Part shown: piece after piece, positions 12,402 to 18,285 of the stretch
How positions within the stretch are numbered: position 1 is the first letter of the stretch
How the letters are laid out: every line of letters starts with the position of its first letter
Origin: Hyphomicrobiales bacterium
GTDB taxonomy: Bacteria; Pseudomonadota; Alphaproteobacteria; Rhizobiales; Aestuariivirgaceae
Length of the DNA: 64,000 nucleotides
Direction of reading: 5' to 3'
Assembly: GCA_031418195.1 (NCBI GenBank)
Contig: JANOXA010000016.1
Coordinates: forward strand, 4,594-68,593
Program-made: the position numbers and the translations under genes
The notes under the pieces: model-generated
What the model was told of the DNA's origin: nothing
Database searches by the model: none
The model's input: only the letters and a program-made list of their open reading frames with translations

Positions 12402-12963
12402 TTAATGCCCAGCCAGCACCGCCAACAGCAGCAGTGCCACGATGTTGGTGATCTTGATCATGGGGTTTACGGCGGGGCCGGCGGTGTCTTTGTAGGGGTC
12501 GCCGACGGTGTCGCCGGTGACGCTCGCCTTATGGGCATCGCTGCCTTTCAGGTGCTTGACGCCTTTCGAATCCACGAAGCCGTCTTCAAAAGACTTCTTC
12601 GCATTGTCCCAGGCACCGCCGCCTGCTGTCATGGAAATCGCCACGAACAAGCCCGTTACAATCACGCCCATCAACATGGCACCGACGGCGGCGAAGGCTT
12701 GGGCCTGGCCTGCGATGGCGTTGATGACAAAGTAGACGACGATGGGAGACAACACAGGAAGCATCGAAGGCAAGATCATTTCCTTGATGGCGGCCTTGGT
12801 CAGCAAATCCACGGCCCTTGCATAATCAGGCTTTGAGGTGCCCTTCATGATGCCGGGGTCGGCCTTGATCTGGCGGCGAACTTCCACCACCACAGACTGG
12901 GCAGCACGTCCCACCGCCGTCATCGACATGCCGCCAAACAGGTAGGGCAACAAGCCGCCGAAC
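12402..12963 (-). pseudogene. Second, 5'-truncated copy of the hppA 3' end (562 bp, open frame, intact stop)
   Basis: Aligns without indels to 16159-16720 (offset 3757). About 70 mismatches by manual count (~87% identity), mostly synonymous. In-frame ATG at 12968. Confidence 0.9.
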
Positions 12964-12975
12964 GGCATATTGATT

Positions 12976-15525
12976 CTACGCGGCCACGAATGCGTCCACA
13001 AATTGATTTAGGCTTGCTGTGTCATCATTGATGACTTGGTTCACAAGTTTGACGATATCGGGGTTCCAGAGACTTTGATTTCTTTCGCAGTCGACTTTCC
13101 AGTCATCCAATACTGAATTAACGACACCACCTATTTGGCCCTTGAAGCTACCATTCCATACGGGATCTTTGGGGAAATTTTTCCTAAATGTAACAAGTTC
13201 GCGCCAAAATTCTCTGTAGATAGCCTGAACACTGCCGAGGAGCGCTGAATCATAACTTTCGAATGGCAAACTGATTGCTTCGCCTTGAACAAGTCCATGA
13301 CGCGCTCGGCTCAAAAGAATTCTCAATTGCGTAAGCCTTTCGCTATCAAACAATGGTTGCTTAAAATAGTCAGTTGCTAAGACTAGTTCGTTTACTCTTT
13401 CAAAATCCGAGATGTCCCCGAATACGATTAGTCTCCACAGAAAGGTGCATTTCGCCTTTAGTTTGCGATTATCCGCTGACACAATTACAGCTGTTTCATT
13501 AAGTTTTCGCCAATCCAATTCTTTAGAATCAGCCCCTTCACCGGACCAAAGATTTCGTCGCGATAATTCTGCAACTTCAAACAGTATTTCAGCGTCATGC
13601 TCTTCTTCAGCATTCACAAGCGCCAAGAGCGCGAATGATTTGCAAAGGTCCGCCTCCTGTGGGTCACCTTGCCGTTGATGCAGTTCATGAACCTCGGCTT
13701 TTATGACGTTCAGGTTTCGAGAGAGCCAATGCAATTCTCCAATTTCGGCGAAGAATAGCGCTTCGAATTTCTCGACTACATGAAGAATGATATCTCCGTG
13801 TTTGCTGAACTCCGCTCCCATTGTTAGCTTCTTGACCAACTCCCCCTTTCTTCTTAAGGCATAGTCATAGTCTCGCGCCATTTGCTTCACTACCGCAAAC
13901 GCGGAACGAACTGCTCCATTCGCTCGTAGCTGCGAGATGGTTTCCAAAATTGGTCCATAAAATGACCAGCGCCAAAAGCGATCAATGCCCCGCTCCTTGT
14001 GCTTTGCTCCAAAACTCCACCTAAATACAGCATCAGTAAGCGTCGGATGCCTGAATTCTAGCACTGGATTATTCTGGATTGCAGAGTAACCTAAACCGCC
14101 CGGCATTTTTACTTCGCCGGCCCAAGTTACAGGAAGTTCGACTATAACCTTGGAGCATTTCTCAATTCCCTCTGAACTTAAATCCAAGGCATAAACTAGA
14201 CAGATCATGAAATCCGTGTAGGCCTTTGGCAGATATTGAAGATTTGAAAAATTGTGCATGCCGTTCAAAAGTGAAATTATAGCCATTATCAATTTGGTCT
14301 CATCGTCTGCGCTTTCCAATAACTTCTTCACGCGATTGTCCAATAATTCCCCTTTAGTGGCTTGGTACTGCGCTGGCCAAAGCCCTGCATATCCGTGCTG
14401 AGACGCCAAACCAGATTGAAATAGTTTTTTGACATAATCCGCTGAGATCCCAGCTGGGCTTGCGCCAAAAAATAGAATTGCCTCTACAAAAGGCTTGACA
14501 TCGCTTTCTTCTAGCCTTGCAACTGGATATGTGTAATAGTTTCGGCTTCTGATCGGATGGGTTAAATCTCTAAGATGTCGTGTGCGAGTACCGAGGCAAA
14601 CGCACCCACATTTATCGCCTGAAAAACCAAGTAGCCAAGTAGGTAAACTCTCTAAAGATTCTATGCCGTCGACAACAATTATTGGCTGCTCGCTCCAATT
14701 AACCACATGTTCAATGTTCTCTAACGCCAATGGCGTTGAACAGTAGAATACACGTCTGCCTGCCTTAAGTGCTTGCTCAGACACCTGTAGCAAGATGGTA
14801 CTTACGCCCTCACCAATTGGTCCATGTACAACTACTATTTCGTGGTTCATAGCAGCGTTCCAAACTACAGGTACGTCTTTGCGATTCACCGCAACGTTGA
14901 CAGCAGTCATTGGTGTCGGGGCACGACCACGCAAATATTGTCGGCCCAATTCGACAAACTCTTCACCTTCGACTTTGTGGAAATCAGGTAGCACTAGTTC
15001 TCGAATTCCAGAACTATCAGCTTTGTGTTCGCCGTATTTTACTCTCTCCGCGTCAAGATCGGTTAGCAGTTTTCGAGCAGTTTCGTCTGCAGATTTCTTA
15101 ATTCTTTCGCTTTGTGCTGTTAAAGCAATGCTCAAAAACGCTTGAAGCTCCTTTCTAACTTCTTGGAGTTCTGTTGATTTTGAGTCATTCCAAAATTCAT
15201 GAATTGCTGCTAGATTCTGCAGGCTGCCCGTTTCCTTGAGTTCCCCTTTCGCAACATCTACGTTGCTAAAGACATTGATTAATCTTCTAGTATAACTAGT
15301 CGGAAAGTTCGGATTCCTCCCTTTGCCATTTTTCCACTTACTTAAATCAGTGCCGAATGATTCACGAAAAATCGCCATTAATGCGCCCTTCGCTGGCATA
15401 CCTTTTTTTCCGCCAGCAAAACGCCAATTGTCTATGTCTTCTTTAAGTTCCTTTGCCGAACCAAAGAGGTGATAAACTAGGTGCGCTAGGGTTTCATTTG
15501 GCTTGATTTGAAGTTCTCTGGCCAT
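12976..15525 (-). CDS. Large STAND-like P-loop NTPase-fold protein with degenerate Walker A; possible defence protein
   Basis: 849 aa. [14 protein letters not shown] (Val in place of the Walker A Lys), Walker B-like PIIVVDG, and LGTR. Long helical C-terminus; AT-rich codon use. Confidence 0.6.
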
Positions 15526-15615
15526 CTTGCTGGTATTTCAACTCCTGCCGCCTAAGTTACAAAACAAAGCAAATCGAATCCTTGCTGGCAAGTCATAAAC
15601 TTTTGGCAACAAGAT

Positions 15616-15647
15616 TTTGGGCGGCCACCTTGCGGTCACCGCCCAAA
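15616..15647. other. Stem-loop between the small Cys-rich ORF and the 849-aa gene
   Basis: tttgggcgg...ccgcccaaa 9-bp stem with an inner acc/ggt pair; no U-tract on either strand. Confidence 0.5.
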
Positions 15648-15855: not shown

Positions 15856-16072
15856 GGTTCACTTATAGTGGCGTGTCACGCGGGTGCCGATGCGGGTGCC
15901 CGTCCAGAACGTGCGGATCGGAGTGCGATATTCATTATAGCGAGTTGATTTCGACATCTTATATATCTCCACTTACTCGGGGCGGAAGTGCCTCCGGTGA
16001 ATAGCTTTTCCACCCTATTTGAATGACAAAATAATACAAAAAATGTTGGCCACCAGCTGACAAAATAAAGTA

Positions 16073-16109
16073 CAAAAAATCCCCGCGACGATCGCTCGCT
16101 GCGGGGATT
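16073..16109 (-). terminator. Rho-independent terminator of hppA
   Basis: Minus strand aatccccgc...gcggggatt stem followed by a T-run, ~50 bp after the hppA stop. Confidence 0.75.
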
Positions 16110-16158
16110 GATGTTTGTGGAATCAAGAGCCAACTAGGCTGGAATGACGAAAGGGTCG

Positions 16159-18285
16159 TTAATGCCCCGCCAATACCGCCAACAGCAGCAGTGCCACGAT
16201 GTTGGTGATTTTGATCATGGGATTTACGGCGGGGCCGGCGGTGTCTTTGTAGGGGTCGCCGACGGTGTCGCCGGTGACGCTCGCTTTATGGGCATCGCTG
16301 CCTTTCAGGTGCTTGACGCCCTTGCTATCAACGAAACCGTCTTCAAAGCTCTTCTTCGCATTGTCCCAAGCGCCGCCGCCTGCGGTCATGGAGATCGCGA
16401 CGAACAGGCCGTTGACGATCACGCCCATGAGCATGGCACCGACAGCGGCGAAGGCTTGCGCCTGACCTGCGATGGTGTTGACGACGAAGTAAACAACGAT
16501 GGGCGAGAGGACTGGCAACAAGGAAGGCAAGATCATTTCCTTGATGGCGGCCTTGGTCAACAGGTCCACGGCCCTTGCATAGTCGGGCTTCGAGGTGCCT
16601 TTCATGATGCCGGGATCGGCTTTGAATTGCCGACGCACCTCAATGACGATGGCCTGGGCGGCACGGCCCACAGCCATCATCGACATGCCGCCGAACAGGT
16701 AGGGCAGCAAGCCGCCGAACAGGAGGCCCACAACCACATAGGGGTTCGACAGATCGAACGACACTTGCAGCGCCGGGAAGAACTCTTTCAAGTCTTGCGT
16801 ATAGGCAGCGAACAACACGAGTGCGCCGAGGCCCGCAGACGCAATGGCATAGCCCTTGGTCACGGCCTTGGTGGTGTTGCCGACAGCGTCAAGCGCGTCG
16901 GTGTTGTGGCGCACTTCTTTGGGAAGTCCTGCCATTTCAGCGATGCCACCTGCGTTGTCGGTGACGGGACCGAATGCATCAAGCGCGACGATCATGCCAG
17001 CTAGTGCGAGCATGGTTGTTACAGCCACTGCGATGCCGAACAGACCAGCGAGGTTGAACGTGACCAGAATGCCCGCGATGATGATCAGGGCTGGCACAGC
17101 CGTTGCTTCCATCGAGACAGCGAGACCTTGGATAACGTTGGTGCCGTGGCCGGTGATCGAGGCTTCGGCGATGGAGTTCACCGGGCGCTTTCCCGTGGCG
17201 GTGTAGTATTCGGTGATCCAGATAATGCCAGCGGTGATCAACAAACCGACGACACCACAATAGAACAGATGGCGCGGTGTATAGGGCGCTTCGACGCTGC
17301 CGAGCGCTGCATTCATGTCGCCAAAAACATAAGACATGACGGGCCACAGCACGACCAGCGACAATACCGCAGTGGCGATGACGCCCTTGTACAGTGCACC
17401 CATGATGTTGCCGGATTTGCCTAGCTTCACAAAGTAGGTGCCGATGATCGAAGTAATGACACAGGCACCGCCGATGGCAAGCGGCAACACCATGCCCGCA
17501 TGCTTGTAGGCTTCGGGAAGTGCTATTGCCGCGAGCACCATGGTGGCAACGGTTGTGACCACATAGGTTTCGAACAGATCAGCCGCCATGCCGGCACAAT
17601 CGCCAACGTTGTCGCCCACGTTGTCGGCAATGGTGGCGGGGTTCCTTGGATCATCTTCCGGGATGCCGGCTTCGACTTTACCCACCATGTCGCCGCCGAC
17701 GTCTGCACCCTTGGTAAAGATGCCACCGCCGAGCCGGGCAAAAATCGAAATCAGCGATGCACCGAATGAAAGTGCGACGAGGGCATCAATCACCGTGCGT
17801 GAGGTTGGGACAAATCCGAGCGAACCGGTGAGGAAACCAAAATACAAAACCACACCGAGGAGTCCGAGACCTGCAACCAGCAAGCCCGTTACAGCACCAG
17901 CTTTGAAAGCCAAGTCAAGGCCACCAGCCAGTGATTTCGTTGCCGCCTGTGCCACACGCACATTGGCGCGGACTGATACGTGCATGCCGATGAAACCTGC
18001 CAATCCTGAGAGAATGGCGCCGATGGCAAAGCCAATAGCAGCATAGCGGCCAAGCAGGAACGCCGTGATCACGAAAATCACCGCGCCGACCACGGCAATC
18101 GTATAATACTGGCGTTTCAAATAAGCCGCAGCGCCTTCGCGCACCAGACCGGAGATTTCTTGCATACGGGCAGAACCAGCATCGGCAGCCATCAGGCTGC
18201 GTGTGGTTACAATGCCGTACACGATGGACAACGCGCCCGCGAGCACGATCAGCCAGAGTGTGGAAGTCATAGGGGGAATCCTCAA
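16159..18285 (-). CDS. hppA: Membrane-bound proton-translocating pyrophosphatase
   Basis: [56 protein letters not shown]; [13 protein letters not shown]; [14 protein letters not shown]. Confidence 0.97.

Follow-up and report, generated by a model that had tools for sequence, protein, structure and literature searches.

We analysed a 64,000-nt stretch of DNA (the window) from the 108-kb contig C16 of a Hyphomicrobiales genome, G000, in which hppA, the gene for the H+-translocating pyrophosphatase, is complete and its 3' end is present a second time downstream. The genome is a metagenome bin of 142 contigs (completeness 97.8%, contamination 3.7%), and the nearest hppA records are metagenome-assembled genomes (MAGs) labelled Aestuariivirga sp. 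or uncultured Alphaproteobacteria. We call the proximal copy, the 3' end of the working gene, P, and the distal copy, a displaced hppA fragment, D. The following features define the duplication:

16159..18285, minus strand: hppA, H+-translocating pyrophosphatase, 708 aa, complete (Pfam PF03030 H_PPase, 838 bits, 6e-252, profile positions 2-645 of 645)
16159..16721, minus strand: P, the working last 562 nt of hppA, 88.4% identical to the copy on contig C9 (repeat search and base-by-base comparison)
12965..16158, no strand assigned: inserted cargo, 3194 bp, low GC (GC content and nucleotide comparison)
12953..12976, minus strand: junction of cargo and D, with the cargo stop codon TAG, 11 nt, and then the first base of D (12964) inside the LFGG codons (sequence and alignment)
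12402..12964, minus strand: D, displaced hppA 3' end, frame open, no indels (repeat search and base-by-base comparison)

P and D are offset by 3757 nt and align over 562 nt without a gap, with 87.2% identity in a base-by-base comparison. Outside the repeat, similarity falls to background on both sides (about 25-35%), and a match of this kind cannot be attributed to chance. The initial annotation had described this duplication, including its length of 562 bp, the offset of 3757, a difference of about 13% that is mostly synonymous, the absence of indels and the break at LFGG, and every detail that could be checked was correct. The sequence at the joint between cargo and D that is relevant to a donor microhomology of 3-10 nt is GTTCGGCGG. 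We also observed a 12-nt direct repeat inside hppA, CTGTTCGGCGGC (LFGG...LFGG, window positions 16686-16727, minus strand); D begins at its first copy.

The changes that separate P from D comprise 54 synonymous and 18 non-synonymous differences (synonymous divergence, dS, 0.56; dN/dS 0.08). Because the differences are almost only synonymous, we read P and D as alleles from two lineages. Of the changes private to D, 28 of 37 fall at third codon positions, and the fragment carries neither an indel nor a stop codon; D thus spent its separate history almost wholly inside a working gene. An on-the-spot duplication left to decay is excluded by the dN/dS of 0.08, the dS of 0.56 and the absence of indels.

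A second full-length hppA, 88% identical, is found on contig C9 of the same assembly, within a 17-kb stretch that is syntenic with C16. We rejected the possibility that it is a true paralogue and read C9 as part of a co-binned sister species, Y, since doubling at ~84% identity affects many contig pairs. In Y, the hppA locus is uninterrupted and is followed by a flank of repetitive extragenic palindromic (REP) sequence of the same type as the one behind D. Altogether, about 100 kb of the G000 assembly is doubled at ~84% identity (C9, C27, C45/C110, C49/C26 and C68/C102, all outside the window), which points to a related second species in the same bin. C9 itself begins with a 141-nt sequence (G000:C9:1-141) that recurs with 99-100% identity at the ends of more than 10 other contigs and is a high-copy repeat, an insertion sequence end or a miniature inverted-repeat transposable element, that breaks the assembly.

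The likeness of P and D is uneven along the repeat. Gene positions 1599-1974 are 79-85% identical, and the final ~150 nt reach 98% and 93%; put differently, the copies are 96% alike in the last 150 nt and 83% before, with a longest identical run of 62 nt. Comparison with Y divides the repeat in the same way:

dS, first part (1567-1974): P-D 0.78, P-Y 0.53, D-Y 0.63
dS, last part (1975-2124): P-D 0.18, P-Y 0.73, D-Y 0.72

Up to position 1974, P lies closest to Y, as the two share 18 derived sites compared with 12 and 7 for the remaining pairings, and D is the outlier. Beyond that point, the closest pair is P and D. In the tree of the copies against the hppA genes of relatives that the initial annotation had called for (maximum likelihood; support values not read), D is sister to the pair of P and Y, inside a clade that also holds the nearest species, G054 and G087. 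We rejected a chimeric working hppA with its break at -562: P and the 5' part of the gene are equally related to Y (88.4% and 88.2% identity), which gives no support to a joint at that point. If hppA contains a chimeric joint, it would lie in the last ~150 nt.

The insert and the older arrangement

The insert and the region beyond D contain these further features:

16066..16120, minus strand: intrinsic terminator after P, hairpin and U-run, 'type-3' (-22.9 kcal/mol, z-score -5.4)
15859..15957, minus strand: 32-aa basic tiny open reading frame (ORF) between the terminator and the NTPase gene, no family match
15667..15804, minus strand: 45-aa Cys-rich small ORF of uncertain status upstream of the NTPase gene, no Pfam family
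12976..15525, minus strand: 849-aa STAND-like P-loop NTPase, a near-orphan candidate defence or sensor gene (PF25199, sub-threshold)
12209..12401, no strand assigned: REP-type palindromic repeats, the clade's native hppA downstream flank
11622..12208, minus strand: higB-higA pair (Pfam HigB-like toxin and HTH_3)
8585..11381, no strand assigned: remaining island with brnT-brnA, vapB-vapC and a 286-aa protein of unknown function (Pfam; GC 45-49%)
7025..8542, plus strand: M32 carboxypeptidase, the far border of the variable region (Pfam Peptidase_M32, 2e-156)

Read from hppA, the insert consists of a hairpin terminator right behind P, a 0.6-kb spacer with the two tiny ORFs, and the gene for the 849-aa protein. 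The cargo is compositionally foreign: GC content is 44.7% in the NTPase ORF and 47.2% in the spacer, compared with 59.5% in hppA and 53% in the window. The 849-aa protein matches PF25199 (nSTAND_NTPase5) at 6.7e-7 with 29.7 bits against a curated cut-off of 34, and precomputed annotation gives the same family for this protein and for both of its relatives, the only two found among 5.8 billion protein clusters, at ~30% identity. The protein is absent from 156 genomes of the genus, no close relative was found in the genome or metagenome contigs searched, and PADLOC holds no model for it. Nor did the cargo DNA have a nucleotide match in the loci retrieved or in the rest of the genome, and an exact search of metagenome contigs for the 48-nt joint between cargo and D gave no match.

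No recombinase family was detected in the insert (Pfam on the 849-aa ORF and both small ORFs, PADLOC on the 849-aa ORF only), and there is no PF00589 integrase on the whole of C16, in agreement with the initial description of a 3.2-kb cargo (3194 bp) that lacks an integrase. The genome does contain ten tyrosine recombinase homologues, all on other contigs.

In the two nearest species, G054 and G087, hppA is followed by ~185 nt and then by homologues of higBA, with no duplication; these loci represent the empty site. D, its flank and higBA form one unbroken alignment to the G054 and G087 loci at 78-80% identity, and the REP flank type that follows D is also found behind hppA in G054, G087, G084 (contig C582) and Y. 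Given this collinearity and the shared flank type, we read D, the REP flank and higBA as the old arrangement, to which 3757 bp were added. The results bear out two earlier proposals, namely that D is the displaced native end in its ancestral position and that the palindrome behind it is of host type, with copies on at least 12 other contigs of the assembly. A profile search (nhmmer) of the window's island found no further copies of the hppA 3' end, nor did the island yield any remnant of the 3' end of the M32 peptidase gene.

Recurrence of the scar across the genus

We looked for the same layout in the genus with searches of the 156 genomes, self-comparisons and an nhmmer profile of the hppA 3' end; 35 genomes, including the most contiguous assemblies, were rescanned with the last 299 nt of hppA. 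Partial duplications beside variable cargo, a search that the initial annotation had recommended, were found in at least seven other species of these Aestuariivirga-like freshwater bacteria, twice each in G003 and G009:

G086: repeat from -378 to +54 past the stop codon; cargo VapBC
G052: remnant of ~145 nt; cargo a Phd-like antitoxin and a 137-aa protein
G003: two remnants; cargo BrnTA, then TerD and vWA-TerF
G009: two remnants; cargo LysR and a 148-aa protein
G059: remnant of at least 231 nt; cargo LysR and a 148-aa protein
G088: remnant of 70 nt; cargo LysR and a 148-aa protein
G084: remnant of 55 nt; cargo not annotated
G114: remnant split across two contigs; cargo Mrr

These loci appear to form a series in which one conserved gene end was hit in at least eight species and at least 10 events, with varied cargo. 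The remnants in the other species are 44 to about 380 nt long, differ in their point of truncation and start at profile positions 185 to 505; the full set of starts is 1, 185, 312, 415, 448, 457, 479, 490, 492 and 505, and most remnants reach the stop codon. All units are between 0.8 and about 4.1 kb in size. In the rescanned genomes, the remnants that adjoin hppA all lie within about 1.6 kb of it, and other weak matches are far off or on other contigs. The allelic pattern of P and D is seen again in G052, where the copies have 16 nucleotide differences and no amino-acid change, and also, for the encoded proteins, in G086; G003 has one remnant that matches its partner at 98% identity. The same architecture lies inside single long contigs in G088 (1.48 Mb) and G003 (299 kb).

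No integrase or large island was found at hppA among the 156 genomes, and no downstream partial copy of hppA among 80 loci with 10-kb flanks from other Hyphomicrobiales and alphaproteobacteria. A self-comparison of G000 gave no second clear gene-end case elsewhere in the genome, only tandem paralogues and one pair on contig C56. This pair (G000:C56:13208-13548 and 17866-18206) consists of two whole copies of a gene for a 116-aa secreted protein, 86.5% identical with mostly synonymous differences and separated by 4.3 kb of other genes; it may reflect a related kind of event or plain dispersed paralogues.

A conserved unit is shared by G088 (locus L166), G009 (L038) and G059 (L156): a type-3 terminator, the motif GGGATAGCATC, the LysR regulator and the 148-aa protein. 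The remnant beside it differs in length among the three, which suggests one shared insertion, after which the displaced end eroded.

Many MAG contigs of the genus terminate within the hppA 3' end, as expected if repeats or polymorphism are present there. We also noted hppA genes that are broken up over two or three frames in L007 (G042), L009 (G024), L018 (G040) and L022 (G090), which are either sequencing frameshifts or real pseudogenes.

Across the genus, the sequences that follow the hppA stop codon belong to a few types: REP, a 'type-2' terminator (GGCCGGGGCAGG.ACTGCTCCGGCC) and a 'type-3' terminator (CCGCG.GGAGCGATC.CGCGG). The hairpin behind P aligns with the hppA terminators of G088, G090, G047 and G009, and the changes in its stem preserve pairing. 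For the events in which both flanks are readable, those behind P and D compare as follows:

G000: P type-3, D REP
G052: P type-2, D REP as in the sister species G028
G088 and G009: P type-3, D type-2
G003: P type-2, D type-3-like
G086: P and D diverged allelic type-2, with the repeat extending to +54 past the stop codon, terminator included

In each of these events the two flanks differ in type or allele. Because the hairpin behind P matches the hppA terminators of relatives, the incoming DNA probably carried the donor's hppA terminator together with the donor's downstream genes. It looks like a piece of a relative's chromosome and not like a purpose-built mobile element. The allelic copies and the foreign terminator of hppA type fit the earlier idea that the cargo entered together with hppA-linked DNA of a related lineage.

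Routes of entry and rival explanations

We consider it probable that the locus records a capture of foreign DNA that needed no recombinase and used homology in hppA as its anchor. A related lineage within the genus would have supplied a piece of ~3.8 kb, comprising an hppA end, its own terminator and the adjoining downstream gene for the STAND-like NTPase, and this piece would have recombined with the resident hppA through what we infer to be homologous recombination of the host's RecA type. On the cargo side, the joint would be illegitimate and lie inside the resident hppA at -562. The resident 3' end and its REP flank would thereby have been shifted downstream as D, with hppA left intact.

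The form in which the DNA arrived may have been either of two. We tentatively favour a self-closed or 'ends-in' fragment of 3.76 kb that was integrated by a single reciprocal crossover within the final ~150 nt of the gene. The 5' three-quarters of D would then come from the donor and most of P would be native; P is predicted to be native up to the crossover, and the crossover zone should lie where the copies are most alike. This route is favoured because of the mosaic in the repeat, the grouping of P with Y and the lack of a break at -562. Of the two forms of integration that the initial annotation had offered, the single-crossover circle fits and is the one we prefer, and the element with an att site and a replacement end is not supported. 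Somewhat unlikely, in our estimate, is a one-sided event in which homology on one side was combined with illegitimate end-joining on the other (homology-facilitated illegitimate recombination, HFIR), with P wholly from the donor and D wholly native; the donor would then need to be, by coincidence, as distant from Y as the host is.

Several observations weigh against capture by homology or blur its details. The signal that separates the two forms of entry is weak. Identity between X and its sister species Y ranges from 75 to 96% per 94-nt window, and no left crossover point can be located in the windowed identity profile of P, D and Y. The donor haplotype (hppA, type-3 terminator and NTPase gene, with no D) was not found among genome and metagenome contigs, protein clusters or the 156 genomes of the genus. 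In G000 and G052 the distance between the cargo stop codon and the joint is 0-14 nt, and in G086 the stop codon coincides with the end of the repeat; random illegitimate joining would predict a looser fit. G088, G009 and G059 share their cargo yet differ in the lengths of their remnants, so part of the spread in remnant length would be later erosion, which weakens the argument from variable joints. Finally, the assembly is a metagenome bin from a mixed sample.

This last point raises the question of an artefact, in which two strains were stitched together or the chromosome path was led through a free 3.76-kb circle with an hppA fragment by way of the last 150 nt, which are nearly identical. 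The bin does contain ~100 kb of contigs from a second species at ~84% identity, stretches of up to 62 nt are identical between P and D, and many assemblies of the genus break within the hppA 3' end. Yet the joint between cargo and D has no shared sequence on its left and hence could not be invented by an assembly graph, the layout is found within the single long contigs of G088 and G003, and a 3.76-kb circle that has no replication gene would fall short of the assembly depth; we give this explanation very little chance. It is quite improbable, though less so than an artefact, that the repeat arose in place by insertion with long target duplication, in which a staggered or replicative break copied 562 nt and P was later overwritten by a foreign allele, or the copies drifted. 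Duplications of this type, in which repeat length varies (46-423 bp) and mobility genes are lacking, are on record for restriction-modification genes (PMC2853133), and the G003 remnant that is 98% identical to its partner and the 96% likeness of the last 150 nt of P and D are in keeping with them. Copying in place would, however, require two events where one suffices, and it leaves unexplained both the hppA-type terminator of another lineage between P and the cargo and the pairing of two different native flanks in each event; its version with neutral drift is excluded by the dN/dS of 0.08 and the absence of indels.

The layout also resembles that of prophages and integrative and conjugative elements (ICEs) that replace the end of a gene, and an integrase encoded elsewhere, perhaps one of the ten tyrosine recombinase homologues on other contigs, could have moved in trans a non-autonomous element with a replacement hppA end, like the cis-mobilizable elements (CIMEs) derived from ICEs. 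We regard this as very improbable. No integrase-bearing relative lies at hppA in the 156 genomes or in the 35 that were rescanned, the remnant starts differ from event to event, the cargo units have no common end sequences, and the repeat in G086 reaches 54 nt beyond the stop codon, terminator included. The same evidence speaks against the earlier view of an element that uses hppA as its att site: the insert, the contig and the hppA loci of the 156 genomes screened are free of integrases, the remnants begin at no fewer than eight different gene positions, and P and D each have their own hppA-type flank.

If capture by homology is correct, the DNA may have been brought in by a gene transfer agent and taken up through ComEC. 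G000 encodes ComEC (contig C93), and it carries a complete and intact RcGTA-like gene transfer agent (GTA) cluster at G000:C120:14500-28050 (L170 5495-19049), with genes for terminase, portal, protease, HK97 capsid, connector, tail tube, DUF2460, hub, NlpC/P60 and a 1290-aa GTA_TIM protein. An uptake route for linear DNA is therefore present as genes. RcGTA heads hold about 4 kb, a capacity that would fit the size ceiling of the units seen here. Uptake of GTA DNA requires ComEC, ComF, ComM, DprA and RecA (PMC10883770).

The 562-nt repeats, with their identical run of 62 nt, would also allow the cargo to loop out. Taken further, the displaced hppA ends could be working parts of an integrase-free cassette exchange, a speculative extension that we hold to be unlikely as a whole. 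DNA of neighbours would arrive in GTA particles, in lengths of about 4 kb or less; a piece that starts in the conserved hppA end would close and enter by one RecA crossover, and the long repeats would later release the cargo as a circle with its own homology arm, able to circulate between species. If this is true, toxin-antitoxin and defence genes could pass between species on host recombination alone, and the range of 0.8 to 4.1 kb in unit size would reflect the capacity of the particle head.

Relation to known systems

A literature search for hppA as a site of integration gave nothing relevant. New 3' ends for genes are familiar from elements that carry an integrase: e14 or phage 21 in icd, and ICESt1/ICESt3 with their integrase-less CIME derivatives in fda, have a fixed att core, a recombinase and repeats of tens to ~165 bp at one position. 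As in those systems, the coding gene here is kept intact by an incoming 3' end and the old end stays behind as a direct repeat; unlike them, the hppA loci have no recombinase and no common core, and the repeats are up to 562 bp long.

Closer in kind are the displaced 3' ends of type VI secretion system (T6SS) effector genes and the orphan arrays of Rhs and contact-dependent growth inhibition (CDI) genes, which have been ascribed to HFIR (Kirchberger et al, 2017; PMC5361080). A conserved upstream anchor, in the case of hppA a proposed one, an old 3' end moved downstream and the lack of an integrase are common to both (PMC5361080), as is the stacking of remnants by successive events, seen here in G003 and G009. 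There, the gene is a variable toxin gene and the displaced piece retains a useful immunity gene; here, the gene encodes a housekeeping pump that does not vary, what is displaced is junk and the cargo has no relation to hppA.

We judge the nearest described pattern to be insertion with long target duplication, ahead of these effector and Rhs displacements. It was reportedly described for restriction-modification genes by Nobusato and colleagues in 2000, and to our knowledge it has been lacking a mechanism since. How small defence and toxin-antitoxin genes move with no mobile-element enzyme is an old open question, and the hppA series would recast the duplication as donor and recipient DNA set side by side by host recombination, with testable predictions in the dependence on RecA and ComEC, in loop-out circles and in a size ceiling. 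For the cell the effect is modest: hppA is intact and one candidate defence gene has been gained.

The likeness to long target duplication is considerable. Both have small cargo of defence type (<20 kb), long variable direct repeats and no transposase or integrase, and in both the repeats of more than 30 bp align to a single copy in empty loci, here those of G054, G087 and C9 (PMC2853133). Their cases include a lone Type IV enzyme, mcrA (PMC2853133), to which the Mrr cargo in G114 corresponds. The differences lie in the repeats, the cargo and the target. Furuta, Abe & Kobayashi (2010) found repeats that hardly differ from each other or from the target (for example 417/423) and read them as target duplication (PMC2853133), whereas the copies here differ by 13%, nearly all of it synonymous, and each has its own native-type flank, as two alleles would. 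No restriction and modification pair is present; the cargo is a STAND-like NTPase and, in relatives, VapBC, BrnTA, Phd-like, TerD or LysR genes, with Mrr only in G114. The end of one housekeeping gene is hit repeatedly across the genus, and the range of cargo is wider. Together, these comparisons suggest that the hppA case is a variant of the known pattern, one whose repeats can be shown to be two alleles, each beside a native flank of its own.

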